Shown here: positions 7,321 to 51,615 of the stretch, piece after piece
Position numbering within the stretch: position 1 is the first letter of the stretch
How the letters are laid out: each line of letters starts with the position of its first letter
Assembly: GCA_021730935.1 (NCBI GenBank)
Contig: JAKFYJ010000021.1
Span: 22,451-86,450 of the forward strand
DNA: 64,000 nt
Direction: 5' to 3'
DNA from: Elusimicrobiota bacterium
GTDB lineage: Bacteria > Elusimicrobiota > Elusimicrobia > 2-02-FULL-39-32
Made by a program: the position numbers and the translations under genes
Notes under the pieces: model-generated
Told to the model about the DNA's origin: nothing
Databases searched by the model: none
The model's input: only the letters and a program-made list of their open reading frames with translations

Positions 7321-8169
7321 ATGGATGATTTGACGCTGGTCCGGGAACTGGACAAAATTTTCGTATATATTGTTGTCCCGGGCCTTGCGGGCATCACATT
7401 CTTTGCGCTTGCCAAATTCGTGCGCCACATCATGCCGCTCCGCGCCCTCGTCTCCAGCCCCCAGACCTATCACGCCGCTTTCTGGGGATTTTTAATTTTC
7501 GGATTTTATCTCGGGCTTCGTCCCGTGCAGGTCCTGGCCGGCCCGCACCCGTGGCCCCTCATCATCTCCAGCATCCGCGAATTTCTCCTGATCGGCGTTT
7601 TCGGTCCCGCCGCGTTCATCGGGATGCTGACCCTCTGTTTCGGGCCGGACCGGATCGGCCGGGGAACCATCGCCGCCGTTGTGGTGATGAGCGTCGCCAT
7701 GGCGGTCGCCTTCTGCGTCGTGAACGGCATGGCGATCGGCGGGTCCGAAGAAATCGTCCGCCTCGGGAGACTCACCGCCTATGACGGCTTGTGGTATAAA
7801 AATAAACGCGAAGACATCGACACGCTCATGCACATCCTTTTTGTGATCCGCATCATCAACCCCGGAGCCATGCTTTTCATCGGCGCCTCTTTCATCCTGC
7901 ACCACGCCTTCACCTATAACGCGTTCAAGCGCAAACTTTATGACAACATGCCCCGCAAACTTTATATCCTGAGCATCGCGGCTTTCATCTATGCTCTCTC
8001 CATTTTCGGCGGCAGTCTCATTTATACGTTCCGTAAAGTCCCCGACCAATGGGGCATCTATCACCTGGGCTCTTTGATCGCGGGGTTCCTCGAAGCGATT
8101 TCTCTCTCCATGCCGGTCCGGAGCGACGTGCAGGTGAGCGAGCATAACGACTCTCCTCTGACGATGTAG
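7321..8169 (+). CDS. polytopic membrane protein of unknown function
   Basis: 282 aa with about seven hydrophobic helices. The antisense ORF 7492..8145 is an acidic low-complexity artefact. Confidence 0.5.
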   Translation: MDDLTLVRELDKIFVYIVVPGLAGITFFALAKFVRHIMPLRALVSSPQTYHAAFWGFLIFGFYLGLRPVQVLAGPHPWPLIISSIREFLLIGVFGPAAFIGMLTLCFGPDRIGRGTIAAVVVMSVAMAVAFCVVNGMAIGGSEEIVRLGRLTAYDGLWYKNKREDIDTLMHILFVIRIINPGAMLFIGASFILHHAFTYNAFKRKLYDNMPRKLYILSIAAFIYALSIFGGSLIYTFRKVPDQWGIYHLGSLIAGFLEAISLSMPVRSDVQVSEHNDSPLTM

Positions 8170-8212
8170 GCTGTTTCTTCCCTTAACACCCCGACCGATT
8201 CTCGGTTAAAAT

Positions 8213-8277
8213 TGTTACATTTTTGTTACAAAATGTTTAGGATTTTATTATGACATTACAGGTAGACTCTTGTAATG
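8213..8277 (+). promoter_or_regulatory. candidate promoter and 5' leader structure of the giant GT gene
   Basis: Direct repeat TGTTACA at 8213-8219 and 8224-8230 with 11-bp phasing. -35 TTGTTA (8223-8228), 17-nt spacer, -10 TATTAT (8246-8251). Inverted repeat CATTACA (8254-8260) / TGTAATG (8271-8277) spans the ATG at 8275. Confidence 0.4.
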
Positions 8278-11200
8278 GATAAATCCTTAAACTGGAACTG
8301 GGTTCGATGCACGTCCATTGGGATATGCCTTGTCTTTGTTTATGTCCATGTTGTTTTCTCCGCCATTGAACCCGCAAAGAGCTTCTGGGAACAGCGAAAA
8401 GAATCAGCCCAAAAACTGAGACGAGGGAATGTCCCTCTGCGAGAAGGAAACGTCACGCTTCTCGCAAAGCTACCGGAAGTTGATCTGAATCTTCTGCCGC
8501 AATCGATCCCCATTCCTCAGTCGCTTGGCCGGGAATTTAAAATGGAAGAACATAAAATTTCCGTTCCAAATCTCCCCATAACTTCAAAATATTCCATTAT
8601 ACCCTCCTGGGTTCAATCCTTGTCGGGGAAAAATGTTTCCATCAAAGACCTTTACCTTCCGCCATCCTGGAAACCCGGAGATTTTATGGTTGTGCACATC
8701 CAGGACGCGCACGGCAATGTTGAAGCCCAAAAAAACATCGCCAAAGCTATTGAGTTTTTGTCTCAGGGGCAAAATAAAACCCCCTCTCCCAATCTGGGAG
8801 AGGGCCAGGGTGAGGATCCTCATCTGATTGTGGGCATTGAAGGCGCCAGAGGAGCCTTCAACTTCGCGGCCTATCGCGCTTTCTCCGACAACGACATAAC
8901 AAAACAAATTGCCGATTATTTTCTCCAAGGTTCATTCATAACAGGTCCGGAATATGCGGGCATGACGTCTGAACAGCCGCTCGAGTTCTGGGGCGTTGAG
9001 GACGAAAGTCATTACCTCTCCCATGTTCAGGCATATAAGGACTCCGTGGCTTTCCAAAAGGAAGCCCGCGCCATGATCGAATTGCTCATGCAGCAGCTTG
9101 AACAGACCAAAACCAAATCGCTGAACCCCGAGCTCTGCAGGCTCGACAATCAAATCACATTGCACCGCAAAGGCAAAACCGGCCTTGGGGAACATCTTAA
9201 GATGTTGGATCAGATCAATTTCGGCCGGGATTCCGGTCCCGCCATAAAACAATTTCTTAATGCCTATCAAATCGAAGCCTCGCTCGACTTCAAGAAAGTG
9301 GAATCTGAACGCACTTCCCTCACCCGCGCGCTGGCTGAAAACCTGCCTAAACAAGAACTGCAAAATCTCGTCAAGGCCAGTCTTTCGTATCGCCTCGGGA
9401 ATTTGGCCCACGGGGCATTTTATCAGTATATGAAAGACCTTTGCATAGCTTACGGCATCAAGCTTTCCGCCTGGCCGGAAATGGACAAATATATCCGCTA
9501 TGTTCTTCTCTCTGATAAGATCAGCGCCGAACAGCTTCTCGCAGAAGTGGGAGATGTTGAGAAAAAAGAGGTTGAAGGACTGATAAAAACCGATAAAGAG
9601 CGGGAAGTCATCCGGCTCTCCAGATATCTCACTCTGATCGAAAAACTCGTGAACTTTCAGCTTTCTCCCGCAGAATGGAAGGAATATGAAATGTTGGGTC
9701 ATCCGGCGTCTGCCGATTTCGCGAACGTTATAAAATTTATTCAACCCTTCGAACGATTCAACCGCGCCGCCATCGCCCGTAATGATGTCCTTGTCGGCAA
9801 TCTCCTTCAAAAATCCGGAGGGCGGTTGGCCGTTCTGGTCGCAGGGGGGTTCCACACCGACGGCATGATGGGAATCTTAAAAAACAAAAAAATCGCCTAT
9901 GCGGTTCTGACTCCTCGGCTCGGCAAAGCGGAAGGAACGGGCAGCGAGTATCTCGATGTCTTCAAGCGCGATGAGACCCCGATCGAAAAGCTTTTTACGG
10001 GCGAGAGGATCACACTTGCATCTCAATCCCGGATGGCTCCCGGCATGGGTGAAACGATGCCGGACACTTTGACGGTTGAGAGCCAATTCATTGGGTTCCA
10101 AATTCTTCTGAAACTGGCCAAAACATTGAAAGCCGAGGGATATAAAACCCCGTCTGAGCGCAGGGCAGCCGTCGATCAAATAGCTGAAAAGGTTCGGGCT
10201 CAAGTCCTGGGAGAGGACGGGGTAAAATTTTTAACGGTCAGAGATATTGAGACGAGTTCTCAAGATGATCGATCGATTGCGGTCCATTACACCTACGAAC
10301 TTAATGGTGTGAAAAAGCAAAGCACAGTTGACTTTGCGCTCTTGGAGAAAGAGGCTCCGCTCGAAAATGTTTCCGGGATCCCTGCGGATGTTGGACCAAA
10401 TAAAATTCTTATGACTCCCCATATGCCTGCGGTCCGATGGGGAAGTCAGTTAACCACACTGCGGTCCTCAGGCGCGATCGGATTTTTAATGTCTCTTTCT
10501 GTAATGGACATCTTGTCCCCTCATGGCATTGCGATCGGAGCAGGTTTGGGTCTCGGCATGATTTTTTGGCTCTGGCTGTCAGACCTTCTGAGCAGACGCA
10601 AAAATCCCTCAGCAAATCATTTGATTGTTCAACCCGTTGTCCGCGAACCCGGGACCTTGCCCAAAGTTGCCATTGTCATCGTAAATTTTAAAGGGGGAGC
10701 GGATCCCCGGGGGACTGTGCACATCAAAAACCTGCTTGCTTCTCTCGGCGCAATGACTCGTGAGAAGTTCAACTATGAAGTGATCGTGGTGGATAACGAT
10801 TCAACCCCAGACTCTCTCGGCGCGATTCGCGAAGGATTGGCAGATTTTCCCGTCTCTGAGGTTATAGAAAATCCGGCAAATCTTGGAGCTGCGGCGGCAA
10901 GAAACCAGGCGATCAGGAACGCATTGGGCCGCGGCAATGATTACATCATGACCTTTGACAATGATACTTTTATTGAACCGGGTGTCGTCGATCAGATGGT
11001 GGACTTTGCGGAGAAATCGCCTCAGGATGTTTTGGCGATCACGCCGAGAATCTATAATGCAAAGGACAAAGATAAACTTTGGTCTGTGGGCCGGAAATTG
11101 GCCAAATTTCCGTATCTGCGCCTGGACGCGCGGGGCAGCCAAGAGGATAAATTCACAGAGCCCTCCGAAGTTGATTTTCTGACGACAGCGGCCGCCCTTT

Positions 11201-14200
11201 TCAGAGCTTCTGCATTTAAGGAAGATCATGCAGGCCTCTTCAATGAGGATTTTTTCATCTACGAAGAGGACAGCGAATGGTGTGTCAGGGCTCAAAAAGC
11301 CGGAGGGAGGACACTTTTCGTACCGGTCGCGGACAAAGTGTACCACGTCGGGAACCAAAGCTTCAATGGGGGCAGAATATCTTCCGAAAGAAATTATTAC
11401 ATGATCCGGAATCGGCTCCTGTCGATGCGCATCCATGGCCAATTTTTACAGCCGCTCCATCTCCTGAGGCTTTTCAGAGCCTTGGCGATAATGAGTTATA
11501 AAACATTGATTCAAGGGAAAAGTCTCCGGGCTTTCGGAGCATTCCTTCTTGGCATTTGGGATGGAAGCCTTGGCAGAGGCGGGATAGGACGCACTTTTCA
11601 AAATCAAGCGTCCAATCAGAACCCCCGCGCCGCGAAAGTTTCCTGGGGGAAAAGATATGAGAAGGTTCTTTTTCCCTCAAATAATACTGCTTCACAAAAT
11701 GTGCCAAGCCTCCGCGATAAAATTATTCAGCGTATCGCATCCAATGTCCCGCTGCTAATGTCCCTGCCGATTAACTTCATTATGATTGCGATCGTCGGAA
11801 CAAGTGCAACACAGTTGTCCGGATTATTTCTGTCGGAAGGCCACTTTTGGCTTGCGGTCTTTATTTGGGGATATTCCATTTCAATAATTTTACTCATCTG
11901 GATCTGGTCGTTCAGAGTCGTTTATAGCATTTTAGGGTTTTTGATCGAAAAATTCATGCATTTCGATTCCAAGCATTTGGCCTATACCAAACCAAATTTG
12001 CCTCAAAACGCGATTTATCCTTCTCTCACGGCTATCATTCCGGTTTATGATGAGCCCTGGGAAGCGATTTTAACATCTCTCAACTCGGCCATTTCCGCTC
12101 GTGAACATTTTGAACACGCATCAAATATTGTTGTCGCGGATGACTACATCGGTGTTTTGGCCGGGGGAGATGTTGCTGAGTTCGTTCGAAGCGCAAAATC
12201 AAAGGCCATACAAAATGTTCCCCTGAGCGGTGCGGAAACCGAAGTCCTCCGGCGGTTAAACTTTTATGATAGCCACGGCATTGGGGTCATCGCGCAGCCT
12301 GCCCATCAGGCCCATTTTGCTGAAGGAACCTACATTCGCGAAGGGCAATTTCCAAAGGCCCACAATCTCAACGTGCTTCATCAGGCCTCGGATTTGATCG
12401 AGGATTATATGAAAGGGGGAATGACCTATTCCGAAGCTTTGAAACGGTTAATCAAAAATGGACAAGTCCACGGATTCACCACGTTTAAATATGCCTATAT
12501 TTCCGAAGTGCAATCCATTTGCACCGGAGATGTTTTGTTATTCTTAGATAATGATTCCTTTGTCCCTCAAGCGGCGCATTCCCCCACCTTGGCTCAGTTT
12601 GTGTTGGAAGAAAATCTGGCCTACACTCAGAATGAAACCGTCATTCATAACGGGGATCAATCGCTTTTCGCGAGGCTGCTGGCCAGTAACGTGGATGCAA
12701 ATAGATTTCTAAACGGATTCAAAGCGCGATTTGGAATCGTGACCTTTTCTGGGCACAATGGGTACATTCGTAAAAGCGTTCTCAGGCAGGTGGGGTACTG
12801 GCCGGTGGACAGAATTTCCGAAGACCATGTGGTAACATATCGCATCATTAACGAGAGAGACCCCGTTGGTAACCAATATTACGGCAAATTTATTGCTTAT
12901 CCGGGGCTGGAATTTGGAGAATCGGCTCCGGAAGACTTCACCACATTTGCCGGCAGGGAATATAAATTTATCATGGGCGACCTGCAAACGTTCTTAAACC
13001 CAATAGCGAACTGGATGAGAGAGGGGATTTTTTCCAGGGACACGCGTTCTTATCTTTCCTCTCATCTGACTCTAACCCAGAGGCATGATAACCTTTTCAG
13101 GCAATCCCGCCCGCTTTTGTCTATTTTAAATTTTGTGACTCTAATCAATTTTCTTATATTCCCAATCATTGTGCCGGAGTCATTGTTGTCGATAGTTCAA
13201 AACGGGGCGACGATCTCGGTTGTTTCCAATCCGGTGAATTTGCGAATTGTGCCCTACAGCGTATTTACAATCATCTTCTTATCCATCCTGCTAATTGACT
13301 TGATCCCCATTTGCGTTTCTCTTATCAGGACCTCGGTCACCCTTAAAAATGATCTTAAGGAAGAGGAGGAAATATTTTATTGGACCAGAATTATTTTTAC
13401 AGCCCTTATCGCCGATACCTTGATCATGAAAATGATCGTGCACATCGCCACCCTTCCCTGGCAGCTCAAGGGAATCGCGACGCACCTTTTGTCCAGAGAG
13501 ATCAAGATCGGAAGCACCAAAAATCTGACGGGGGATTGGAAAGCCCAAGCCGTCAAGATCTTGCGCGCCAACAAACTCAATATTCCTTTTTCAATTTTCA
13601 TCGGCATCTTGTTCACCTTGTGGCTGCGACATGTTTTTCCGCTGATTCAAACAACAAATCTCCTGACCCGCGTCATCTTATTCGTTTTCATTTTTGAACA
13701 TTCCATCCGGGTCGTGGGGCCCCTCCTTGGCCCATTTGTGTTAAATCCCTCCTCAGGTAAAAAAGCCATCCATCTTATGAATGATGTTAAAGAATTTTCA
13801 AGAAACAAATTTAACCTTGAAGCTCGTCCCAGGCGCCTTTCCCTTTATTTTATCGGGACGGCCGCCGTGGCGGGAGGCATCCTTCTTCGGTTCTGGAATC
13901 TCAATTATTTGGGACCATGGATGGACGAAGCCATGTACATACTCGCTGGCAAAAACATGGGCAACCCTGCGCTCAATTATGGCTGGATCAGCGGATGGAA
14001 ATATCTTTATCCCGCAGTCACTTACTTTGGATACGATCTGGCCGGTTCCGTGGTCGGGTCCAGAATTGTCAATGGGCTCCTCGGGTTGGGGACGGCGTTT
14101 TTCGCTTTCCTGTTTTCCAGGAAAGTGATTTCTGAAATTTTTAGCGCGGACAATGCTAAGACGAACGATGCGAGAGCCCTGGCGAGCTTGGTGGTTCTTA

Positions 14201-16935
14201 TGGCCTCGGGGCCCTTGATGATCATCAGCCGTTTGGCAACGTATGACGGTTTGGCCTTTTTCTTTTTTGCGGTTTCCGTTTATCTGATCCAGAATAATTC
14301 AAAATCTAAAAACCCTTCGGCTTTTTTATTTTTAGGTGCCATCGCATTTGTGCTGGCCTTTCTTTCAAAATATTTTCTGGTCATTTTTACGCCCTTCATC
14401 TTAACCTATGCCCTCATTCAGACGAAAGACAGAACTCGGTGGACAAAATATTTCCTGCTTCCTTTTCTCTTCCCCTTGGCTGTCTTTTTTGCCTTCTTTG
14501 GGAATGACTTTGCCGCGGGACTGCAATATGCCGCCAAACAAAATAAGTTGCAGTCTTGGGGCGTCTGGGGGATCACAAGGGAAACGGCCATCAACGGCGG
14601 AGTCCCATTTCTGCTTTCCATTCTGGGATTATTGCGGGTGCCAAAAGAGAAAAGAATGCTGGCTTTTTGGCCCATCGGAGGGGCCATGCTGGTATATGTC
14701 TATCACGTGCTCGATCTTCATGTTCAGGGCCTTCCCAAAGTCCTCAGTGGCTCAGTGATTCTTTTGGCTCCGCTGGCCGGCGTTGGGCTTATAAAACTGA
14801 TGTCCTTGGCCATTCACCGGCGCAAACAAGTGAACTGGCTCGCGAGGTTGTCGATTTTGGCCATCTTAATTCGCGCTTCCATTTGGACTTTGCCCGGGCA
14901 TCCCATTGCGGGTTCACGGACTGAGTTTTGGCAGGACAACTATACGGTTGCGGAAGTAATTAAATATTATGCGCAGGACGTCCCGGAGCCTTGGATCCAT
15001 TCTTCCCGAGCGCATGAGCTTGCGCTATTACTGCCCTCTCTGGAGTCCTCCATCAATCCGGTGAAAAAAACCGGCGTGGAGAGTAATCCTTATTTTTCGA
15101 GCATGTATGTCACTCCCGAGCCGGAATTTTTTGAGAATATCAAGAACCGGAAGTACGCCATCGTCCATTTATATCCTGAATATTGGAATCCCGCTTGGTC
15201 CGAATATCCAGATTTAGTCAGAAACACTCTGGAATTGCTCAAACAAAATGGCTATGTCCATGCTTATTATGATGACCGGCCGAACATCACCTCTTTCGGA
15301 ACGGAACTTTCCCCGTCGCGTTCCCACATTTATGTCCGGGATGATATTTTTAATAAATCCGGCACCGTTACAAGCAAAGACGGCCATCTTCTTTTCCCCG
15401 GGAAATCTCCGGGCGCCATGGGCATGTGGCAGAAATTTGGAATAAATAATCTCGTAAAAATCGCGCACCTTGAAAATATCATCCTCGGAATCTTGGCCAT
15501 GGGCGCAACCGTATTTCTTATTCACCTGGGTCTCATGCCTCAAGCTCCGCCCGCAAATTTCGCAGATGCTGGCCTTCTTCTTTTTAAAATCTTTTCAGTT
15601 TCAGGATTCCTTTACATTTTTCTTCGTCACCTCCTTCTCAAAGCGCATTATTATTTGGGCGTCGCTCAACCGATCGGCCCGCCCGTCATGCGCGATTGGG
15701 AGGAGGCCGTGCAATCCACAAGAACAGCGTCCTTGAGTCTCGTCTCCGTTCCCTTCATTGTCGCGGGAATGATTTTTATGTCTTGGGCAGGCCCTCTCGC
15801 GATCCTCACCGGTATTGCGCTCTCCGGCATGGGTGTCTCTTTGGGAGGCCGCTTGCATGCGCGAAGAAATGACCTTGCCCAATCCTGGGCTATGCCGCGG
15901 AGTCTTATTGAAATCCGAATGGAACGCGCTTTCAGTGAAATAAAAAAATTCCAAATTGATGATCACAACGCTCAAGTCAGGCATGCTCTGAAACTGGTCG
16001 CACTCTGGAGACTGTTCAATGGGGAAGCTCTGGACCAAACTTTGAGCGCGGACCGCATCGATCAGACGGAACTCGAAAGAGTAATCAGATTTCATTCCAC
16101 CAGAGAAATGGCTTCCATCGCGGGTCACATGGACGCCGTGGCGAAAGGCGTTTCTGCATGGGACTTCTTCTATCATGGAGGCATGCAAGAGGACTTGAGC
16201 GCGGATGCTTTAATTTTCGAAGAAGCCATTAACGCTTATCAAATCATGCGGTATCATGCGCGGCCGGGTCTGCGATTGAGTGAAACACAAATCGCAAGTG
16301 CAAAAGATATTTGGGAACTTGGACGTATTTCAGCTTCCGCGCTCAAAACCTGTGAAGTTATCGATGTTTTAAACAGCGAAAAATTAAAGCGAACGGACGC
16401 CTATGCTTCAGAAAATCAAGTTCTGCTTCATAAAGTGCACCGCCTCTCAAATCAGGAGATTTCTATATTGGTCCGCAGCATCAAAAGGGAAAATGCTTCC
16501 GGCAATCTCAATCAGGTCACTTTTTTGCTGGATGCGGGAACGCGAAACATATCCCGAAGCGAGCTAAAACAGCTTCTCGGGAAATATGGCGTTACGGAAA
16601 ATATGTTTGACGGTGCCTTCAGAGGCGACTTCAAGAGCCACATGATTACAGAGGAAGAAATAGCCCAGCGCCAGAATGTGGACCCTTCCATCAAGCGCGA
16701 CACGGAGATGATTTATGAAATCGCCGCAGGAAAAGCCGGCGTTTTGGCTGGCCGCCCCATCCGAGGCAAAATATCCCTGGACATTTATACCGATGAAATG
16801 ATTTACAGCGAAAGCTGGGGAGAAAAATTATCCATCAGAATTCTGTTCATCGTCTCGCAAACCCAGGTCGTTGTTATGAGTCAATGCATCGATCAAGCCC
16901 TCCGCGAAGACGCTCTCGTTGCTTTGCAGCAATAA
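8275..16935 (+). CDS. giant 2886-aa polytopic multi-glycosyltransferase fusion (ChaN/Tiki-like domain + GT2 + cellulose-synthase-like GT2 + PMT/ArnT-like GT-C + C-terminal domain)
   Basis: Single uninterrupted 8661-nt ORF. Motifs: VVHIQDAHGN...AGGFHTDG; VAIVIVNF...VVDNDS...FDNDTF...YEEDSEWCVR; IIPVYDEP...VVADDY...FLDNDSF...ISEDHVVTYRI; LRFWNLNYLGPWMDEAMYILAG, with more than 25 predicted transmembrane helices. Confidence 0.9.
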   Translation: MDKSLNWNWVRCTSIGICLVFVYVHVVFSAIEPAKSFWEQRKESAQKLRRGNVPLREGNVTLLAKLPEVDLNLLPQSIPIPQSLGREFKMEEHKISVPNLPITSKYSIIPSWVQSLSGKNVSIKDLYLPPSWKPGDFMVVHIQDAHGNVEAQKNIAKAIEFLSQGQNKTPSPNLGEGQGEDPHLIVGIEGARGAFNFAAYRAFSDNDITKQIADYFLQGSFITGPEYAGMTSEQPLEFWGVEDESHYLSHVQAYKDSVAFQKEARAMIELLMQQLEQTKTKSLNPELCRLDNQITLHRKGKTGLGEHLKMLDQINFGRDSGPAIKQFLNAYQIEASLDFKKVESERTSLTRALAENLPKQELQNLVKASLSYRLGNLAHGAFYQYMKDLCIAYGIKLSAWPEMDKYIRYVLLSDKISAEQLLAEVGDVEKKEVEGLIKTDKEREVIRLSRYLTLIEKLVNFQLSPAEWKEYEMLGHPASADFANVIKFIQPFERFNRAAIARNDVLVGNLLQKSGGRLAVLVAGGFHTDGMMGILKNKKIAYAVLTPRLGKAEGTGSEYLDVFKRDETPIEKLFTGERITLASQSRMAPGMGETMPDTLTVESQFIGFQILLKLAKTLKAEGYKTPSERRAAVDQIAEKVRAQVLGEDGVKFLTVRDIETSSQDDRSIAVHYTYELNGVKKQSTVDFALLEKEAPLENVSGIPADVGPNKILMTPHMPAVRWGSQLTTLRSSGAIGFLMSLSVMDILSPHGIAIGAGLGLGMIFWLWLSDLLSRRKNPSANHLIVQPVVREPGTLPKVAIVIVNFKGGADPRGTVHIKNLLASLGAMTREKFNYEVIVVDNDSTPDSLGAIREGLADFPVSEVIENPANLGAAAARNQAIRNALGRGNDYIMTFDNDTFIEPGVVDQMVDFAEKSPQDVLAITPRIYNAKDKDKLWSVGRKLAKFPYLRLDARGSQEDKFTEPSEVDFLTTAAALFRASAFKEDHAGLFNEDFFIYEEDSEWCVRAQKAGGRTLFVPVADKVYHVGNQSFNGGRISSERNYYMIRNRLLSMRIHGQFLQPLHLLRLFRALAIMSYKTLIQGKSLRAFGAFLLGIWDGSLGRGGIGRTFQNQASNQNPRAAKVSWGKRYEKVLFPSNNTASQNVPSLRDKIIQRIASNVPLLMSLPINFIMIAIVGTSATQLSGLFLSEGHFWLAVFIWGYSISIILLIWIWSFRVVYSILGFLIEKFMHFDSKHLAYTKPNLPQNAIYPSLTAIIPVYDEPWEAILTSLNSAISAREHFEHASNIVVADDYIGVLAGGDVAEFVRSAKSKAIQNVPLSGAETEVLRRLNFYDSHGIGVIAQPAHQAHFAEGTYIREGQFPKAHNLNVLHQASDLIEDYMKGGMTYSEALKRLIKNGQVHGFTTFKYAYISEVQSICTGDVLLFLDNDSFVPQAAHSPTLAQFVLEENLAYTQNETVIHNGDQSLFARLLASNVDANRFLNGFKARFGIVTFSGHNGYIRKSVLRQVGYWPVDRISEDHVVTYRIINERDPVGNQYYGKFIAYPGLEFGESAPEDFTTFAGREYKFIMGDLQTFLNPIANWMREGIFSRDTRSYLSSHLTLTQRHDNLFRQSRPLLSILNFVTLINFLIFPIIVPESLLSIVQNGATISVVSNPVNLRIVPYSVFTIIFLSILLIDLIPICVSLIRTSVTLKNDLKEEEEIFYWTRIIFTALIADTLIMKMIVHIATLPWQLKGIATHLLSREIKIGSTKNLTGDWKAQAVKILRANKLNIPFSIFIGILFTLWLRHVFPLIQTTNLLTRVILFVFIFEHSIRVVGPLLGPFVLNPSSGKKAIHLMNDVKEFSRNKFNLEARPRRLSLYFIGTAAVAGGILLRFWNLNYLGPWMDEAMYILAGKNMGNPALNYGWISGWKYLYPAVTYFGYDLAGSVVGSRIVNGLLGLGTAFFAFLFSRKVISEIFSADNAKTNDARALASLVVLMASGPLMIISRLATYDGLAFFFFAVSVYLIQNNSKSKNPSAFLFLGAIAFVLAFLSKYFLVIFTPFILTYALIQTKDRTRWTKYFLLPFLFPLAVFFAFFGNDFAAGLQYAAKQNKLQSWGVWGITRETAINGGVPFLLSILGLLRVPKEKRMLAFWPIGGAMLVYVYHVLDLHVQGLPKVLSGSVILLAPLAGVGLIKLMSLAIHRRKQVNWLARLSILAILIRASIWTLPGHPIAGSRTEFWQDNYTVAEVIKYYAQDVPEPWIHSSRAHELALLLPSLESSINPVKKTGVESNPYFSSMYVTPEPEFFENIKNRKYAIVHLYPEYWNPAWSEYPDLVRNTLELLKQNGYVHAYYDDRPNITSFGTELSPSRSHIYVRDDIFNKSGTVTSKDGHLLFPGKSPGAMGMWQKFGINNLVKIAHLENIILGILAMGATVFLIHLGLMPQAPPANFADAGLLLFKIFSVSGFLYIFLRHLLLKAHYYLGVAQPIGPPVMRDWEEAVQSTRTASLSLVSVPFIVAGMIFMSWAGPLAILTGIALSGMGVSLGGRLHARRNDLAQSWAMPRSLIEIRMERAFSEIKKFQIDDHNAQVRHALKLVALWRLFNGEALDQTLSADRIDQTELERVIRFHSTREMASIAGHMDAVAKGVSAWDFFYHGGMQEDLSADALIFEEAINAYQIMRYHARPGLRLSETQIASAKDIWELGRISASALKTCEVIDVLNSEKLKRTDAYASENQVLLHKVHRLSNQEISILVRSIKRENASGNLNQVTFLLDAGTRNISRSELKQLLGKYGVTENMFDGAFRGDFKSHMITEEEIAQRQNVDPSIKRDTEMIYEIAAGKAGVLAGRPIRGKISLDIYTDEMIYSESWGEKLSIRILFIVSQTQVVVMSQCIDQALREDALVALQQ

Positions 16936-17042
16936 AAAAATAACTCACGCCTAAAAACTTTCCTACACACGTTGACATAATTCCCTGATTCCGCGTCCGC
17001 GCTGAACTTTTTATACTGGTCTCCATGAAAGGAGACAAGTTT

Positions 17043-18659
17043 ATGAAAAGATATTTTTTCGCCGCAATTTTCCTTATTGTCTGCGCCGCAGTTCATGCTC
17101 AGCCTTCGGTCCTCATCAATGAGGTCGCCAGCGAAGAGCCCACGCCGCCCGGAGACTGGATCGAGTTTTATGTCTCAAGTTTCACGGACCTGAGCGGCTG
17201 GAAAGTTTTTGAGCAGAACGCGCTCGTGAAAACATTTCCTTCCTTGTCATTGTCCGCGGGAACCTATTTCATCCTCAAATTCAACTCCTCTTCGCCTGAC
17301 GAAACCCCTGCCTCCGGCGACGCGAACGGCAACGGAATTCTGGATCTCTATACGGCGGACACGGGCCTGACAGGGACGTCCAATGCAGTTTCCTTAAGAG
17401 ATGCGAAAGGGCTCGTCATGGACGCGGTCGTTTTCTCAGACAGCGCGAGCTGGACCAGCGCTCAGCAATCCGCCTTCGACATGCTGGTGTCCACGGGGCA
17501 GTGGCAGGGAACCGTGAACGGCGGTCTCAAAAACTTTTCTGATTCCGTGAATATCGCGGGAGGCGTCGGGCCCGGCAATTCAATCGGCAGGAACCCGGAC
17601 GCGCTCGACACGAACCACTTTTCGGACTGGCGACATATTAAAGGAACCCAAACCAAAGGCTCTCAAAATCCCGCCTCAGTCGCCTGCCCAAACAGCCCGC
17701 CGTTCGAGGGGACGATCTCGGAGGTCGCCCCCTCCCTGCCCATTTCCGCCGGAGGCGATTTTGTGGAGATTTTCGTCAACAACCCGATCAATGTTTGCGG
17801 ATCAAAAATATATGAAGGCGCGGGACTCATCAAAACACTCCCTTCCGTGACTCCCAATGCCGGACCTTTCGGGTCCTATATTATTCTTCACGCAGGAGCA
17901 AAAATATCTCCTTCCAATCCTGACGAAACCGATGTCACAGGTGACATGAACGGCAACGGCTCTGTCGATCTTTATTCGGACGAGTCCAGTCCCGGCATCA
18001 CCGGGAGCGCGGACAACGCCATTCTGCTGGAATCTTCCGACGGAAACCTCATTGATTTTATGGGGTTCTCCGACAAATTGCTTTTTTATTCCGCCGTTCT
18101 TCAGGGGCAATATAACCGCGCGGTTTCTCAGGGCCTCTGGGTCCCGGAATGCAGCGGTGAAGAGGACTGCTACGGCGCCGGCTCCGTGGCCTGGTCCAAC
18201 TCCACGACAAAATCAATTTCCAAGAAAATTTCAGAAGGAGGTTTTCCGATGAGTTCTCGGCCTTCCAGTCCCGACGACTGGGAGATATCGGCGCCCACTC
18301 CCGGGAAAACATCAAGGACCGCAAAACAAGAAACGGCGCCTGCCAAAAACGCCATCCGCGTGAGCCAGTCCCCTTTTTCTCCGATTGGCGACGGGCCTTT
18401 CAGAGAAGCCTTGTTTGATTGCCCGTCGGACCCCGGCTCAAAGATCACGCTCAAGCTTTATGATGTTCAGGGCCGGCTCATCCGCACGATCGCGGACCGC
18501 GTTTCCGCAGACGATGCCCAGGTTTTTTCGTGGGACGGCAGGAATGCCGGAGGCGATTTGGTTCCCGTCGGCATCTATGTCGTCTGGTTTGAAATCAAGC
18601 AGTCAAACGGCGAGCTCAGCCATAACGCCGAAACGGTCGTCGTCGGGAGACAGCTATGA
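17043..18659 (+). CDS. secreted protein with two lamin-tail domains and a C-terminal FlgD-Ig/T9SS-type sorting domain
   Basis: AAGGAG Shine-Dalgarno 8 nt before ATG 17043, with signal peptide MKRYFFAAIFLIVCAAVHA. Lamin-tail-domain motifs LINEV...DWIEFYV..DLSGW and ISEV...DFVEIFV. C-terminal KITLKLYDVQGRLIRTI...GIYVVWFEI matches por_Secre_tail/FlgD-Ig style domains. Confidence 0.75.
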   Translation: MKRYFFAAIFLIVCAAVHAQPSVLINEVASEEPTPPGDWIEFYVSSFTDLSGWKVFEQNALVKTFPSLSLSAGTYFILKFNSSSPDETPASGDANGNGILDLYTADTGLTGTSNAVSLRDAKGLVMDAVVFSDSASWTSAQQSAFDMLVSTGQWQGTVNGGLKNFSDSVNIAGGVGPGNSIGRNPDALDTNHFSDWRHIKGTQTKGSQNPASVACPNSPPFEGTISEVAPSLPISAGGDFVEIFVNNPINVCGSKIYEGAGLIKTLPSVTPNAGPFGSYIILHAGAKISPSNPDETDVTGDMNGNGSVDLYSDESSPGITGSADNAILLESSDGNLIDFMGFSDKLLFYSAVLQGQYNRAVSQGLWVPECSGEEDCYGAGSVAWSNSTTKSISKKISEGGFPMSSRPSSPDDWEISAPTPGKTSRTAKQETAPAKNAIRVSQSPFSPIGDGPFREALFDCPSDPGSKITLKLYDVQGRLIRTIADRVSADDAQVFSWDGRNAGGDLVPVGIYVVWFEIKQSNGELSHNAETVVVGRQL

Positions 18660-44852: not shown

Positions 44853-45565
44853 AACATTTTTCACTCATTCTTTTGGCGCTGTTCGGCGCCGGAGCGCTGG
44901 AGGCCCGCGAAAAAGAGACGGTGGTTCTCCTGCACGGCATCCTGAACAAACCCTTCTTCATGAAGAAGATCGAAGGCGCGTTTATCAAAGAAGGATATGA
45001 GGTCGTCAACTGGGGATATCCAAGCACTGAGAAAACGATCGAAGAACACGCCAAGGATCTGGACAAATCCATGCAATCCCTCAGAGGCAAAAAAATTCAC
45101 TTTGTGGCGTTCAGCCTCGGCTCAATCCTGGTCCGATATTATCTCCGGCATTATCCGGGATCTGACGTTGGACGCTTTGTGATGATCGCGCCGCCCAACC
45201 ATGGATCCGAAATGGTGGACAAGCTTTATTCCGAAGCCTGGTTCCGATGGATCTATGGCGACAAATCGATCGAACAGCTTCAAAGCTCAAACTCGGAATT
45301 TCTCGTCAAGGAGTGCGGCATCCCTCAGTGCGAGTTCGGGATCATTGCAGGAGGCCTCGGGGACGGCAAGGGCTTTAACCCTCTGCTCAAAGGCGACAAC
45401 GACGGGACGGTTCCGGTGGAAAGCGCCCATCTCGAAGGGGCCAAAGACTTTGTTCTTCTTCCCTATGAACACACCGCGCTGATATTTTCGGACAAGACCT
45501 CCAGGAACGCGGTTCATTTCATCAGGAACGGAAAATTTATTCATAAGGATAAAAAAATAAAATGA
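44843..45565 (+). CDS. alpha/beta hydrolase (lipase/esterase-like), secreted
   Basis: Signal peptide and a GxSxG nucleophile elbow (AFSLGS), 240 aa. Confidence 0.65.
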   Translation: MGLKHFSLILLALFGAGALEAREKETVVLLHGILNKPFFMKKIEGAFIKEGYEVVNWGYPSTEKTIEEHAKDLDKSMQSLRGKKIHFVAFSLGSILVRYYLRHYPGSDVGRFVMIAPPNHGSEMVDKLYSEAWFRWIYGDKSIEQLQSSNSEFLVKECGIPQCEFGIIAGGLGDGKGFNPLLKGDNDGTVPVESAHLEGAKDFVLLPYEHTALIFSDKTSRNAVHFIRNGKFIHKDKKIK

Positions 45566-46677
45566 AAATTTTGATTCCGTCCGTCACCTGCGGCGGGGGG
45601 CATATGCAGGCGGCCTCTGCGCTTGAAGAAACCTGGAAAATCGTCCGCCCTGAGGATACCGTGAGGAAAGTGGACGTGCTTGATTTTACGCCGCGCATTT
45701 ATAAAAAGATTTATTCTGAAGGCTATGTGAAGCTGATTCAGCATGCCCCGGAGGTGTATTCGCATTATTTTGAAAAGACCGATGATCCCTCATTCATTAA
45801 AAGAATGACGCCTCTGCGCAGAATCACTTCGAGGTTTATGGCAAATCCTTTCGTGAAATATCTTAAAGAATTTTCGCCGGATCTGATGGTTTGTCCGCAT
45901 TTTCTGCCTCTGGAGATTATGGGCGCTTTGGGATCGAAACACTTTAAGAAAAGAAAACCCAAAGTGGTGTGCGTGGTGACGGACTTTGAAGCTCACGCGC
46001 TTTGGATGGAGCCCTGCGTGGATCTTTATTGTGTCGCCGCAGAAGAAACAAAAGCGCGTCTGGTGGCGCGCGGAGTTTCTGAAAAAAAAGTCATTCCCAC
46101 AGGCATCCCCGTGTCTTTAAGATTTTCCAGTCCGATCAATGCCAAAAAGGTGCGTAAAGGGTTGGGGTTCAGAAATGATCAAAAAACTCTTCTCGTTCTG
46201 GGCGGAGGTTTCGGCATGGGACCTCTGCCTCAAATCGTCAAAGAAGCGGATCGGATGAAGGTCCCTTTTCAAATCGTTGTGGTTGCCGGAAAAAACGAAA
46301 AACTTAAGAGAATTTTGGACTCAAAAAAATATCGGCATCCCATGAAAATATTCGGGTTTACCCATAACATGCACGAACTCATGGCGGCCTCTGACCTGAT
46401 TCTCACCAAGCCGGGGGGCTTGACCACTTCCGAATCTCTCGCGATGGGGAAACCTCTTTTCATCTTCAGTCCCATTCCGGGTCAGGAATCCGCAAACAGC
46501 GATTTTTTGCTCGAGCGAGGGGCCGCCATCAAAGCCAACCGCATTGAGGACATCCCCTTTCGGCTCGAACAGATTCTCCATTCGCCCAAGCTGGCCCTCA
46601 TGACGTCAGCCGCAAAATCGTTGGGGCACCCCAGGGCCGCAGTTCAAATCATTCAGGAGGCGGTGAAGCTCGCATGA
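45562..46677 (+). CDS. MGDG synthase / UgtP-like diacylglycerol glycosyltransferase (GT28 family)
   Basis: N-terminal ILIPSVTCGGGHMQAA motif and C-terminal GT-B nucleotide-binding half (TKPGGLTTSE). Confidence 0.7.
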   Translation: MKILIPSVTCGGGHMQAASALEETWKIVRPEDTVRKVDVLDFTPRIYKKIYSEGYVKLIQHAPEVYSHYFEKTDDPSFIKRMTPLRRITSRFMANPFVKYLKEFSPDLMVCPHFLPLEIMGALGSKHFKKRKPKVVCVVTDFEAHALWMEPCVDLYCVAAEETKARLVARGVSEKKVIPTGIPVSLRFSSPINAKKVRKGLGFRNDQKTLLVLGGGFGMGPLPQIVKEADRMKVPFQIVVVAGKNEKLKRILDSKKYRHPMKIFGFTHNMHELMAASDLILTKPGGLTTSESLAMGKPLFIFSPIPGQESANSDFLLERGAAIKANRIEDIPFRLEQILHSPKLALMTSAAKSLGHPRAAVQIIQEAVKLA

Positions 46678-48164
46678 AAATGAGATCTGTGTTGATGGCC
46701 TGTTTTTGTCTCTTGCTTTGCTTTCAGGCGCATGGAGATCAGGAGGCAAAATCTGATCAAGAGAAGATCGGCAAAGACCTTCAGCTCGTTCAGGCTTGCC
46801 GGCAAGGATTGGGTTTCATCCTGACTTTCACTTCGAATCGTCCCGGCATTTTTTCTGCTGATAAAAATAACAAGAGCCGTCTGTTCACGAGGCAGGAAAA
46901 AGAAGAGGCCTGGAACTCCTGGAAAATGGTGTCAGATTATTTCCTGGCATTGGATTCCCTGCGCGCCTCTCACAACTATTTTGAGCGTTCGAAAGATGAT
47001 TCCGGCGATGCTTCATTTTTGATCGCTTATGCGGCATTTCTCGCGCAATATCGTTTCGCCCTGGAATGGATTGAGCGGACTGAAAATAATCCGGATCTGG
47101 ACACAATTTTTAATGAACCCGTTCCCGAAATGGGTTTGCCGGAAAATACATACTCCCTCTTCAAGTTCAGGTTTCTCAATGTTGCCCGAGCGACCGAGTT
47201 TGCCGCTTTGGAAACGGTCTATTCGCTCAATAAAGGACGGGGGCATGAGGAAACTCGAAAACTGATCCGTGAAGACGCCGACGCCGTTTGGAAAGCCGGG
47301 AAATTCAGCGGTCAGATATTGACTGCAAAGAATGCATTAAAAATTGTCAAGAAAGCGGGTTTTGCCGCCTGGATGCCCGTGCAAACCGGAGTTTCTGAAT
47401 ACATGGGCGACACGAAGGTTTATCGCAGATCTCTCTCCCTGATTACAGAGATGCAAATTCGATCCCTGCAGAACCTTCTCGAACCCGGAGACATTTTGCT
47501 TGAGCGGAGGGAATGGTATCTTTCCAACATCGGCTTGCCGGGATTTTGGCCGCATGCGGCGCTTTATGTGGGCACACCTGAGGAGCGGAAAAAATATTTT
47601 GAGGATTCGGATGAGAAAGATATTGATGCGCGCCTAAAAAGCAAATACCTTGCCGCTTATCTTCGCGGCCAAGAGCTGTTCGAAGGACATGTTCCTCGGG
47701 TCTTGGAGGCGATCAGCGAGGGGGTCACCTTCACAAGCCTCGAACATTCTGCGTCCTGCGATTCCCTTGCCGTTTTGCGCCCGAGACTGTCCAAGAAGGA
47801 GAAAGCCCTGGCCATCTTGCGCGCATTTCATTATGCCGGCCGGCCCTATGATTTTAATTTTGATTTTCAAACGGATGCGACCCTGGTGTGTTCGGAGCTG
47901 ATCTATAAAGCGTATGAGCCGTCGAACATCGGGAAAGGTTTGAAACTTGGGACGGAAGAACTCTTGGGGCGGCTTGTGACTCCGCCGAACAGCATGGTGA
48001 AGCAATTCGATCAAGAGGCCGAGTCCGGAGACCGGCAGATGGACCTGGTCCTGTTTTTGGACGGACATGAATGGAAAAAATCCGCAGAGCTGTCGGACGA
48101 AAGGGAATTCAGGGAAAGCTGGAAAAGGCCCAAATGGCACATTTTTGTTCAGGGAAAAAAATGA
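46674..48164 (+). CDS. secreted protein with C-terminal YiiX/YaeF-like permuted papain (C92) amidase domain
   Basis: Signal peptide and a C-terminal ...AALYVG...EGVTFTSLEH...LVCSELIYKAY motif pattern. The ~260-aa N-terminal region has unknown function. Confidence 0.5.
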   Translation: MKMRSVLMACFCLLLCFQAHGDQEAKSDQEKIGKDLQLVQACRQGLGFILTFTSNRPGIFSADKNNKSRLFTRQEKEEAWNSWKMVSDYFLALDSLRASHNYFERSKDDSGDASFLIAYAAFLAQYRFALEWIERTENNPDLDTIFNEPVPEMGLPENTYSLFKFRFLNVARATEFAALETVYSLNKGRGHEETRKLIREDADAVWKAGKFSGQILTAKNALKIVKKAGFAAWMPVQTGVSEYMGDTKVYRRSLSLITEMQIRSLQNLLEPGDILLERREWYLSNIGLPGFWPHAALYVGTPEERKKYFEDSDEKDIDARLKSKYLAAYLRGQELFEGHVPRVLEAISEGVTFTSLEHSASCDSLAVLRPRLSKKEKALAILRAFHYAGRPYDFNFDFQTDATLVCSELIYKAYEPSNIGKGLKLGTEELLGRLVTPPNSMVKQFDQEAESGDRQMDLVLFLDGHEWKKSAELSDEREFRESWKRPKWHIFVQGKK

Positions 48165-49189
48165 AATCAATCTTTTGCGCAAGTCTTTTAGTGTTCGCTT
48201 TGAAGTCTATATCCATGGGAGCATCGCTCAAGTCTGGAGAAAGGGTTATGTTTTATCCGTCTTATGGATTCCTCTCATCCAGCGGGATTTGGTCCGTTCA
48301 AATTCATGGCGTCGCATTTGAAGACGAACCGAACTCTCATCTAAGAAAATATTTGGCCAAAAGCTTGGGACATTTGCTGGGCCTGTCTCCGGAGGAAATC
48401 AAGTGCGAAATTTTTCAAAAGCGCGCGTTCTATTTTGTTGAGGACAACAAACGGTCAAGAACCCTGGAGATTTCAATCGCGGGACAACCTTTTAAACTTA
48501 AAAAAACCGGCCCCAACGGTCACATCGAAGATCATGTTTCTCTCAACTGGACGGACCGATCTGAAATGTCAGAGAGTCCTTGGCTTGAATTCCAGTTTTC
48601 CGGAAAAGCTCAGTTGATCAGCCCTCGCGGGGTGTCGGTCATCTCCGACATAGACGACACAATCAAAGTGACGCAGGTGCATGACAGAAGAAAAATGATT
48701 CAGAACACTTTCGTCAATCCTTTTCGCGCCGTCCCGGGCATGTCCGGCCTTTATCGCGGATGGGAGAAGAGCGGAGCCGTATTCCATTATGTCTCTGCCT
48801 CCCCGTGGCAATTGTATGCGCCTCTGTCTGAATGGATGCATAGCGAAGGATATCCTCAGGGGACCTATCACCTGAAACATTTTCGCTGGAAAGACGCCAG
48901 TTTCTTTTCTCTGTTTGAGTCGCCGGAAAAATATAAGGTCGAAGTCCTGGAGCCGATCCTGCAGGAATTTCCAGGAAGGCAGTTCGTCTTGGTCGGAGAC
49001 TCTTCCGAATCCGATCCGGAAGCTTACGGGGTTATCGCAAGAAAATATCCCGGTCAAATCCGTAAAATATACATATTGGATCCCGCAGGCTCAAAAAATT
49101 CAGAGCGCTATGCGGCGGCTTTTAGAGGAGTTCCGGGGGTGGTCTGGGATGTTTTTAGGGATCCAATCGAAATTGAGGGGGGGTTATGA
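48161..49189 (+). CDS. App1-like phosphatidate phosphatase (DUF2183)
   Basis: VISDIDDTIKV catalytic motif and ...LVGDSSESDPEAY. Start chosen at ATG 48161 (signal peptide MKSIFCASLLVFAL). Confidence 0.65.
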   Translation: MKSIFCASLLVFALKSISMGASLKSGERVMFYPSYGFLSSSGIWSVQIHGVAFEDEPNSHLRKYLAKSLGHLLGLSPEEIKCEIFQKRAFYFVEDNKRSRTLEISIAGQPFKLKKTGPNGHIEDHVSLNWTDRSEMSESPWLEFQFSGKAQLISPRGVSVISDIDDTIKVTQVHDRRKMIQNTFVNPFRAVPGMSGLYRGWEKSGAVFHYVSASPWQLYAPLSEWMHSEGYPQGTYHLKHFRWKDASFFSLFESPEKYKVEVLEPILQEFPGRQFVLVGDSSESDPEAYGVIARKYPGQIRKIYILDPAGSKNSERYAAAFRGVPGVVWDVFRDPIEIEGGL

Positions 49190-50675: not shown

Positions 50676-51615
50676 CGTTCACGTCCACCTGGCCGCTCTG
50701 CCGGACGGCGACAATGGATGCCACATCTCCAAAGAAATGGTTCACGGGGCGCTTTTCCGGTTCCTTTTCTGGAAGCTGGGGATTTCTGTGGATGAAGCCA
50801 AAAAAAGCAATGAGCGTTATGTTGAGAAGCTCGTCAAACTTCTGCGGGAATCCAAACATGTCCGAAAAGCTGTCCTCCTCGGGATGGACGGGGTTTATGA
50901 CGATGCGGGAAACTTGAACAAGGATGCCACGCACTTCATCGTGTCCAACGATTATGTCCTTCAAACCGCAAAAAAATATCCAGACCTCTTCCTTGCAGGA
51001 ATATCAGTGAACCCCAAACGAAAGGATGCGGTTGATGAAATCAATCGCTGTGCCCCGCAAGGCGCGGCCCTCGTAAAAGTCCTGCCCAATTCCCAGGATT
51101 TTGATCCCGCCAATAAAAAATATCTTTCATTTTATAAGGCGATGGCCAAACACAAACTGCCTCTCCTCTCTCATGTGGGATATGAGTTCAGTCTTTGGGG
51201 AAAAGATCAGTCGGTGGGAGACCCCGCCAGAGTCCGCATGGCTCTCGACGAGGGAGTGACGGTGATTGCCGCGCACGGAGCGAGCTATGGGCTTTTCTTC
51301 TATGAAAAATATTGGAACACGCTTCTGGAACTGACGCGGAAATATCCGAATTTTTATTGGGACGCTTCCGCGCTCACTCTGCAAAACCGCGTTGGAATGC
51401 TTTTAAAGATCCGCAATCATCCCGAGCTTCACAGCCGCATGGTCTTCGGGACCGATTACCCTTTGCCCTGCTATGCTTATCCTGCGCTCCTTGCAGGAAA
51501 ACTGTCCGGATACATCGAGCTGCTGCGCACTTCGAACCCATTCGACCGTCACCACCGGCTTTTGGAAATTCTTGGGATTCGCGGAAACTCTGAACTTTTA
51601 AAGGATAAATTATGA
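50668..51615 (+). CDS. amidohydrolase-family metal-dependent hydrolase (TIM barrel)
   Basis: N-terminal MIDVHVHL metal-binding motif. Start at 50668 removes the overlap with the upstream gene. Confidence 0.6.
   Translation: MIDVHVHLAALPDGDNGCHISKEMVHGALFRFLFWKLGISVDEAKKSNERYVEKLVKLLRESKHVRKAVLLGMDGVYDDAGNLNKDATHFIVSNDYVLQTAKKYPDLFLAGISVNPKRKDAVDEINRCAPQGAALVKVLPNSQDFDPANKKYLSFYKAMAKHKLPLLSHVGYEFSLWGKDQSVGDPARVRMALDEGVTVIAAHGASYGLFFYEKYWNTLLELTRKYPNFYWDASALTLQNRVGMLLKIRNHPELHSRMVFGTDYPLPCYAYPALLAGKLSGYIELLRTSNPFDRHHRLLEILGIRGNSELLKDKL

Follow-up and report, generated by a model that had tools for sequence, protein, structure and literature searches.

The 64,000-nucleotide stretch analysed here (the window; positions 22,451 to 86,450 of contig JAKFYJ010000021.1 from an Elusimicrobiota bacterium) contains an uninterrupted open reading frame (ORF) for a protein of 2886 amino acids (aa). 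By sequence comparison, this protein belongs to a very large and apparently unnamed family of giant proteins, which combine a conserved N-terminal head with a variable body and, in a subfamily, a conserved tail. Its own body holds three glycosyltransferases, two of family 2 (GT2-A and GT2-B) and one of the GT-C type, and this three-transferase body is unique to it among the 5.8 billion sequences searched. The explanation that we favour, to which we give a probability of roughly 0.6 as a whole, is that the gene encodes one real giant multi-enzyme protein, threaded through the inner membrane and made of the family frame and an envelope-glycan body. An initial annotation had read the protein as a stand-alone invention. 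Yet, its head (aa 1 to ~700) and its tail (aa 2527-2886) are the frame of a large family. A frame with interchangeable bodies changes what has to be explained about this protein, and it is a more important fact than any relay of sugar donors among its enzymes. The coordinates of all features are given in Table 1.

The integrity of the reading frame, which the initial annotation had asserted, was borne out by the ORF listing, by a stop-free translation and by an identical 2886-aa protein (P0001) in a public NCBI record, on a contig of 103,677 bp. At ~48% G+C, the chance of 2886 codons without a stop is (61/64)^2886, about 1e-60, and an open frame of this size would thus be far beyond chance. 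Since different bodies lie between the family head and tail in six independent assemblies, we take the ORF to be a single gene. The intergenic region just upstream (8170-8274) is rich in A and T, with promoter-like hexamers located at 8183-8212 and 8223-8251. Measured over window 8001-16000, the G+C content is 0.46-0.49 and even along the whole length of the ORF, against 0.52-0.555 in the 8 kb to either side; the lower value may be due to the many transmembrane segments that the gene encodes, or the gene may be of foreign origin.

The family was delimited by a homology search with the query in the 5.8 billion proteins. Among 104 matches, the 103 other than the query itself are all giant proteins (1,594-4,971 aa), and where their source is named it is a metagenome-assembled genome (MAG) of Elusimicrobia, Omnitrophota or Chlamydiota. 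The nearest relatives come from Elusimicrobiota MAGs. When mapped by BLASTP, the relatives share only the N-terminal part of the query, with a core at aa ~135-585, and six of the closest (P0002, P0003, P0005, P0008, P0009 and P0010) also share its last ~340-360 residues. According to precomputed Pfam annotations, the cargo varies from one family member to another and includes metabolic enzymes (triose-phosphate isomerase, GAPDH, phosphoglucomutase, PEP-utilising enzymes, 4-alpha-glucanotransferase) as well as NUDIX, radical SAM, PP2C, protein kinase, GGDEF, GNAT and AAA ATPase domains. A profile built on an alignment of 28 family heads (A1), used in an exhaustive search of 1.84 billion cluster representatives, matched 10,093 of them at E<=1e-3 and 7,198 at E<=1e-30. 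We take 7,198 as a conservative count, because ordinary ChaN-like proteins may be present among the lower-scoring of the 10,093. In the best 150 of these matches the head is always N-terminal, starting at residue 13-256, and the longest protein has 7,806 aa; the head-bearing proteins that we sampled belong to Elusimicrobiota, Omnitrophota and their relatives, and are mostly of 1.6-7.8 thousand aa. Within 400 aa after the head, 94 of 206 sampled members have a hydrophobic segment, at a median distance of ~154 aa. The head family is paralogous within genomes, since one Elusimicrobia MAG (RIFCSPLOWO2_02_FULL_39_32, MGUU01 contigs) has at least three giant genes with the head; in our window it is present once.

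The C-terminal part of the frame is much less widespread. A hidden Markov model of the tail finds only the seven proteins of the subfamily, and the tail has no Pfam match, a weak structural model and no informative fold match. Its extreme end, A(L/M/V/I)QQ-COOH (window 16921-16932 in the query), is conserved in P0002, P0003, P0005, P0008 and P0009, whereas P0010 ends in AASQ; this conserved C-terminus may be a recognition tag. Just before the tail lies a module of four transmembrane helices that, in a phmmer search with aa 2380-2530, recurs internally in six family proteins with different bodies (P0159, P0043, P0141, P0007, P0219 and P0029).

The head looks like a member of the superfamily of TIKI, ChaN, TraB and erythromycin esterase (Ere). 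Nine residues are invariant in A1 (E189, G190, G240, Y247, R502, G524, G525, H527 and P547), H146 and Q152 are nearly so, and the aligned heads have in common the motifs HIQDAHgNxEAQ, vGvEGA, WGvED and GGFHT. The ChaN/Tiki-like domain of the initial annotation finds partial support in family models: PF04187 (ChaN family, Tiki superfamily) matches 7 of the 28 homologous heads, with a best E of 4.2e-7, and PF01963 (TraB/PrgY/GumN) matches one, but the head of the query itself has no Pfam match. A scan of the heads with NCBIfam gave no family model. The AlphaFold model based on A1 has a predicted local distance difference test (pLDDT) score above 90 across the first 425 residues of the segment, and shows a parallel-sheet alpha/beta core interrupted by ~270 residues of helices. 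The predicted catalytic-type residues, D144-x-H146, E189, R502 and H527, are found at strand ends of this model, with D144 occupying the ExH position. TIKI-family proteins have a constellation of two His and two Glu at strand ends, which in RRSP are E3900, H3902, E3930 and H4030 (PMC6254334). Judging by order and position, and not by superposition, D144-x-H146, E189 and H527 would be the equivalent of this constellation. Hence, we regard the head with fair confidence as a predicted TIKI/Ere-type domain, likely to be catalytically competent. Our preferred guess for its function is that of an outer-face hydrolase, either a peptidase or an esterase, possibly acting on the protein itself. Comparisons with solved structures were uninformative: the head profile gave only spurious helical matches among PDB sequences (e.g. 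CWC23 and centrin), a single head sequence (P0017) matched nothing useful in the PDB, and Foldseek found nothing significant there for the model. The ZNF598 PAH domain model (PF23202) matches 9 of the 28 heads (best E 1.6e-5), probably because of paired amphipathic helices in the insert. The linker after the head is partly common to P0003, P0004 and P0066.

The N-terminus suggests that the head is exported. A hydrophobic segment is present in 159 of the 209 family sequences that start with M, preceded by a flank of net charge +2.7 and followed by one of charge close to 0. The FWxERR motif allowed 78 members to be anchored, and in these the consensus reads ...YFLTNVxxAHA up to the predicted cleavage point and AExNFWxERRxAAQ(R/K) after it, and the W and first R of FWxERR are invariant. 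The n/h/c pattern and the AxA site make the family N-termini look like Sec signal peptides, which points to export of the head. ChaN, Tiki and PrgY are exported proteins. In the query, the cleavage region has VFSA before and IEPAKSFWEQRK after the cleavage point; because this is a poorer AxA site than the family consensus, its N-terminus may remain an uncleaved anchor. Unlike in ordinary signal peptides, the hydrophobic core of the family N-terminus (window 8275-8400 in the query; family proteins P0005-P0126) is itself conserved; together with FWxERR, it could be a dedicated sorting or processing signal.

Pfam scans and motif location confirmed all the domains and motifs that had been assigned to the body, and the models Glycos_transf_2, Glyco_trans_2_3 and PMT_2 were all detected on the whole protein. 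The first transferase, GT2-A, is a secure GT-A-fold GT2 by sequence. Glycos_transf_2 (PF00535) matches it in the aa 796-1030 region with E 1e-27 and 97.5 bits, for a threshold of 23.3. It carries the DxD motif DNDTF (aa 895-899), the upstream acidic motif VVDNDS (aa 838-843) and EDSEWCVR (from aa 998). Its best NCBIfam matches are the rhamnosyltransferase TIGR01556, MftF and EpsD. The first covers nearly the full profile (positions 19-281, E 6.9e-22) and is far below the cutoff. The matches of PgaC and NodC also fall in GT2-A and not in GT2-B, again far below the cutoffs. No ArnC or GtrB equivalog was found for GT2-A at E<=1 in the NCBIfam scan. Among PDB sequences the best match is chondroitin synthase (1.3e-5), followed by TarS and GalT1; DPMS (5mlz) comes ninth, with E 0.034. 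GT2-A thus does not appear to resemble polyprenyl-phosphate-sugar synthases of the GtrB, ArnC or DPMS type.

The second transferase, GT2-B, resembles membrane-embedded synthases. Glyco_trans_2_3 (PF13632) matches aa 1422-1607 with E 8e-14 and 52.3 bits (threshold 27) when the whole protein is searched, and with 37.9 bits and E 2.2e-9 when the GT2-B segment is searched alone; the match ends at profile position 153-160 of 198. The motifs IIPVYDE (aa 1254), VADDY (1287), DNDSF (1425), SEDH (1515) and GREYKF (1560) were all located. With PF13632 above threshold, this upholds the earlier description of a second GT2 having SED for TED and a degenerate QxxRW. In place of the latter, GT2-B has RxxKF (REYKF), i.e. 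R for Q, K for R and F for W. In a non-significant alignment with a chitin-synthase-like GT2, SED lines up with TED and REYKF with QVKRW. Two hydrophobic helices precede the domain and four to five follow it. No solved structure was matched by the sequence of GT2-B. Its DD and DxD motifs are separated by an insert of ~130 aa; the stretch of the insert at window 12310-12620 (aa 1346-1448) weakly matches the N-terminal region of microbial collagenases (9l5o and 7esi, E 0.008-0.04), which is probably spurious.

Several lines of evidence suggest that the third module is a GT-C of the PMT_2 type. PMT_2 (PF13231) matches aa 1962-2069 with 26.1 bits on the whole protein, which is equal to the gathering score of 26.1 and thus leaves a small margin, and the GT-C segment alone scores 30.4 bits. 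The hallmark motifs are at aa 1872 (RFWNL) and 1882 (WMDEAMY). The only homolog found is a stand-alone protein of 481 aa, P0117 (E 5.8e-18, 27% identity over 55% of the query), which itself scores 41.1 bits for PMT_2. The motifs NLNY..P..DEA.Y and SRLATYD are conserved between the two, and the DE loop of P0117 reads NDEAIY. The soluble domain that follows the GT-C core has no family match in Pfam and partly aligns with the C-terminal soluble part of P0117. The DE loop would face outward, given the stretch rich in lysine and arginine (K/R) before the first transmembrane (TM) helix of the GT-C. The gene of P0117 is in a conserved cluster (L013:4622-14970; also L014-L016) with rmlABCD, PMT_2, a polysaccharide deacetylase, a chitin-synthase-like GT2, GH18, Yip1 and a GT2-GtrA fusion, and the GT2 enzymes of the cluster are of the same two Pfam types as those of the query. 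This looks like a locus for a rhamnose- or chitin-like envelope polymer, so the same enzyme classes would cooperate elsewhere as separate genes. The GT2 domains of the query have no significant similarity to the GT2 genes near P0117.

No other protein searched has this body. Searched alone, aa 780-2540 gave only weak generic GT2 matches, and hence no protein shares the arrangement. Among 222 family members, phmmer searches with segments of the query found no relative of GT2-A, GT2-B or the GT-C. Conservation of the architecture is therefore split: the head is conserved, and in six relatives the tail also, but the three-transferase body occurs in no other protein searched. The initial annotation had not recognised the fusion of two GT2 and one GT-C as a described architecture, and no counterpart was found in the databases searched. 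A described GT-A/GT-C fusion was not found in the literature searched either, which is only absence of evidence.

We derived a topology from a crude hydropathy scan and the positive-inside rule. Both flanks of the hairpin between the GT2 domains (aa 1158-1213) are K/R-rich and the connecting loop has neither K nor R, so both GT2 domains should be on the same, cytoplasmic, side. From the N-terminus, TM1 (aa 12-32) would run from inside to outside, the head (34-745) would be outside, and helix 751-772 would return to the inside. GT2-A (796-1097) would then be inside, the hairpin would go in, out and in, and GT2-B (1250-1607) would also be inside. After GT2-B, helices 1613-1634 and 1658-1684 would span the membrane, whereas the amphipathic segment 1700-1727 probably does not; helices 1770-1790 and 1796-1819 would span it too, leaving the K/R-rich loops 1728-1769 and 1820-1854 in the cytoplasm by parity. 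The first helix of the GT-C (1856-1873) would finally run from inside to outside and expose the WMDEAMY loop (1882-1888). This is the sole assignment that we found to place both nucleotide-sugar-dependent domains inside and the acidic loop of the GT-C outside.

The reading that we favour can now be put together. The frame consists of a predicted signal peptide or anchor followed by a head of ~460 residues, of TIKI/ChaN/TraB/erythromycin-esterase type, keeping the His/acid/His constellation, and in the closest relatives also of a tail of 360 residues, with very different enzyme sets inserted between the two. In the query, the inserted set would be an envelope-glycan assembly line of three enzymes: a non-processive GT2 like WbbL, a synthase-like GT2 embedded in the membrane and a GT-C of the PMT_2 type. 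The head would stand outside the cytoplasmic membrane, both GT2 domains would be in the cytoplasm, where the nucleotide sugars are, and the DE loop would be outside. The two GT2 domains might then build or extend a glycan or a lipid-linked sugar at the inner face, and at the outer face the GT-C might pass sugar from a lipid-linked donor on to an acceptor. The data establish the ORF, its four domain assignments, the family frame and the uniqueness of the body, and from these we infer the topology, the substrates, a common pathway for the three transferases and the role of the head.

A number of points weigh against this interpretation. The GT-C assignment is built on a Pfam score at or just above threshold and on one homolog, and the GT-C profile (A2) had no match among the sequences of solved structures. 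Lacking a canonical QxxRW, GT2-B may be non-processive or inactive. A substrate shared by the three transferases would be a supposition, and no neighbouring gene ties the protein to a glycan pathway. The topology has only the hydropathy scan and the positive-inside rule behind it, and the scan gives no side for the tail. The segment 728-772 could form either a single helix or a hairpin; in the latter case, the head would be cytoplasmic. The query also has more K/R in the flank after TM1 than in the one before it. A cytoplasmic head had been considered from this K/R-rich stretch; it was dropped given the signal-peptide-like N-termini of the family and the fact that FWxERR is a conserved motif.

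Three other explanations must be weighed. According to the initial annotation, the protein could be a self-contained machine, in which a fused GT2 makes a polyprenyl-phosphate-sugar and the fused GT-C, once this donor has been flipped, uses it at the outer face, in the manner of Ppm1/Pmt, ArnC/ArnT and GtrB/GtrC. Such systems exist as separate proteins (PMC9574508), GT2-A and the hairpin 1158-1213 have together the outline of GtrB or DPMS (a GT-A domain and two TM helices), a GT-C with an outward-facing DE loop is in the same chain, and a GT2-GtrA fusion gene lies near the stand-alone homolog P0117. Yet, GT2-A fits best the rhamnosyltransferase, MftF and EpsD models, with no ArnC or GtrB equivalog listed, and DPMS is only its ninth PDB match; moreover, the GT2 domains of the query are not significantly similar to the genes adjoining P0117. 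A flippase was not detected either. No GtrA (PF04138, the GtrA_DPMS_TM domain) or Wzx was found at E<=1 in the whole protein with Pfam, nor among the neighbouring genes, and one could be encoded in the rest of the genome. The recurrent four-helix module is not a dedicated flippase, because it is common to family members without phmmer relatives of these transferases. With neither a synthase of the polyprenyl-phosphate-sugar type nor a GtrA-type flippase detectable, a relay feeding its own GT-C is not demonstrated, and the interpretation of the initial annotation is not supported on this point. We consider such a machine unlikely.

The giant might instead be a polyprotein, cut into separate enzymes by its TIKI-like head or by a host peptidase, so that fusion would serve co-expression and co-insertion. 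The residues to which TIKI-family enzymes owe their endopeptidase or esterase activity are retained in the head, MARTX toxins have TIKI-fold domains (PMC6254334) and are autoprocessed, and N-terminal peptidase domains (C39 and S8) are proposed to cleave other giant bacterial proteins (bioRxiv 10.1101/2023.11.21.568195). However, we saw no sign of cleavage sites or of conserved linkers between modules, and membership of the TIKI family does not imply a protease, as the family also has esterases and ChaN, which binds haem. Linkers in the cytoplasm would moreover be out of reach for a head outside the membrane. We strongly doubt this scenario. Hardly credible is an artefact of assembly or annotation, in which the contig would be chimeric or sequencing errors would have merged neighbouring genes. 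The sequence evidently comes from a MAG, the G+C of the ORF is below that of its flanks and no homolog has a body of the same arrangement, but the 8.66 kb are free of stops in one frame and of even G+C, the family head and tail are in that same frame 5.5 kb apart, as in six proteins from independent assemblies, and giant ORFs are the rule for this head family.

Table 1. Features of the giant gene and of its product, with positions in the protein and in the window.
Feature	Protein (aa)	Window	Strand	Basis or family
Giant ORF, ATG start, 2886 aa plus stop codon		8275..16935	+	ORF listing, stop-free translation
Signal peptide or signal anchor, hydrophobic core aa 12-32	1-33	8275..8373	+	Hydropathy
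FWxxR(R/K) family motif, just after the hydrophobic N-terminus	37-42	8383..8400	+	Motif location, family comparison
Conserved family head, predicted TIKI/ChaN/TraB/Ere-superfamily alpha/beta core split by a ~270-aa helical insert	131-588	8665..10038	+	
Post-head linker with small low-confidence alpha/beta region	589-745	10039..10509	+	AlphaFold2 pLDDT 30-70
TM helix after the head, then SRRK	751-772	10525..10590	+	Hydropathy
GT2-A, GT-A-fold glycosyltransferase with VVDNDS, DNDTF (DxD) and EDSEWCVR	796-1097	10660..11565	+	PF00535
TM hairpin between the GT2 domains	1158-1178 and 1190-1213	11746..11913	+	Hydropathy
GT2-B, synthase-like GT2 with IIPVYDE, VADDY, DNDSF, SED and REYKF	1250-1607	12022..13095	+	PF13632
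Hydrophobic cluster after GT2-B, four likely spanning helices and one amphipathic segment (1700-1727)	1613-1819	13111..13731	+	Hydropathy
GT-C membrane core, PMT_2 family, ~10 hydrophobic helices	1856-2207	13840..14895	+	Pfam, hydropathy, homolog P0117
GT-C DE motif in WMDEAMY, first loop after TM1 of the GT-C (aa 1856-1873)	D1884, E1885	13918-13938	+	
Soluble domain after the GT-C core, 185 residues	2208-2392	14896..15450	+	Hydropathy
Four-helix transmembrane module	2396-2523	15460..15843	+	phmmer
Conserved family tail, ending ...ALQQ-COOH	2527-2886	15853..16932	+	

The neighbours of the giant gene are ordinary chromosomal genes. They encode a porin-like protein, a flavoprotein, an LTD/FlgD-Ig protein, a ComEA-like protein, a cupin, MltA, a sensor kinase and the glycine-cleavage system, with no glycan cluster among them, and no conserved neighbours of family genes were found in other genomes. 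Immediately downstream (17025-18659, + strand) is a gene for a 544-aa protein with lamin-tail and FlgD Ig-like domains, likely to be secreted or at the surface, for which no link to the giant gene was established. Two other loci of the window caught our attention. An ORF of 1137 aa at 51612-55025 (+) has MFS_1, acyltransferase and AMP-binding domains and resembles a fusion of a lysophospholipid transporter with an acyl-ACP synthetase/acyltransferase (LplT-Aas type). Three adjacent ORFs at 45562-49189 (+) encode an MGDG-synthase-like GT28, a C92 permuted papain-like amidase and an APP1-type phosphatidate phosphatase, and may be a cluster for the remodelling of membrane lipids.

These results matter both for the family and for glycobiology. 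A shared head with an intact hydrolase-type active site would give the giants a common handle, i.e. a way to define the family, a testable activity and a means to sort the bodies. If the topology is true, a single chain with two cytoplasmic GT2 and an outward GT-C would be a natural Rosetta-stone fusion, indicating which enzyme types cooperate across the membrane, and possibly a compact subject for structural work on the coupling of glycosylation at the inner and outer faces. One might speculate further that the head is an outward hydrolase or sensor that processes or controls the body, marking an undescribed superfamily of several thousand giants in Elusimicrobiota, Omnitrophota and neighbouring phyla, and that the body of the query is a complete line for making and attaching an envelope glycan in one polypeptide, combining GT-A, synthase-type GT2 and GT-C in a way that has not been seen in other proteins. 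We hold this larger picture to be conceivable, and would not bet on it.

How does this giant compare with known systems? GT2-B has in common with membrane-embedded processive GT2 synthases (BcsA, hyaluronan synthase, NodC and PgaC) a PF13632 match above threshold, the D, DxD and (S)ED motifs and flanking TM helices. Unlike them, it has RxxKF for QxxRW, an insert of 130 residues between DD and DxD and no match among solved structures. The head differs from the members of the TIKI, TraB-PrgY-GumN, ChaN and erythromycin-esterase superfamily (ChaN 2g5g, EreC 6xcq, HopBA1 5t09 and RRSP 5w6l) by the helical insert of ~270 residues that splits its core, by being, in the 150 best matches, always the N-terminal module of a giant protein, and by having no Pfam or NCBIfam model that covers it. 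P0117 shares the DE-loop and SRLATYD motifs with the GT-C of the query, but it is a separate gene of 481 aa and its GT2 neighbours are not specifically related to GT2-A or GT2-B. In three- and four-component glycosylation systems, a GT-A of the GtrB, CsbB or GacI type, a flippase (GtrA or Wzx) and a GT-C are separate proteins (PMC9574508). Like these systems, the query would join in one functional unit a GT-A in the cytoplasm and a polytopic GT-C whose first outer loop is acidic, if the sides are as we infer. Unlike them, it has its domains fused in one chain, a second, synthase-like, GT2, a GT-A that does not match the polyprenyl-phosphate-sugar synthase type and no detectable flippase domain.

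The closest precedents are giant proteins themselves. Elusimicrobiota are enriched in huge, uncharacterised proteins (PMC11573180). In Omnitrophota, giant membrane-threaded multi-enzyme proteins are documented in two preprints, as class 1 in Nielsen & Lui 2026 (bioRxiv 10.64898/2026.06.07.730766) and also in West-Roberts et al. 2023 (bioRxiv 10.1101/2023.11.21.568195). In term searches, neither preprint was found to mention a conserved ChaN/Tiki-like N-terminal head. The Omnitrophota giants are like the family of the query in having unrelated enzyme domains tiled in one chain, with a signal peptide and/or TM helices along it, and they share cargo classes with the relatives of the query: phosphoglucomutase, starch-synthase/GT1, radical SAM, NUDIX, GNAT, HATPase and response regulators. 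They differ in scale and host, since the papers treat proteins of at least 10 thousand aa (or more than 30 thousand), whereas the query has 2886 aa and its nearest relatives are in Elusimicrobiota. Hence, the query shares the architecture type of class 1 of Nielsen & Lui and not its defining size or taxon. Giant multi-enzyme membrane proteins were known already; what is new here is the three-transferase body and the undescribed TIKI-like head.

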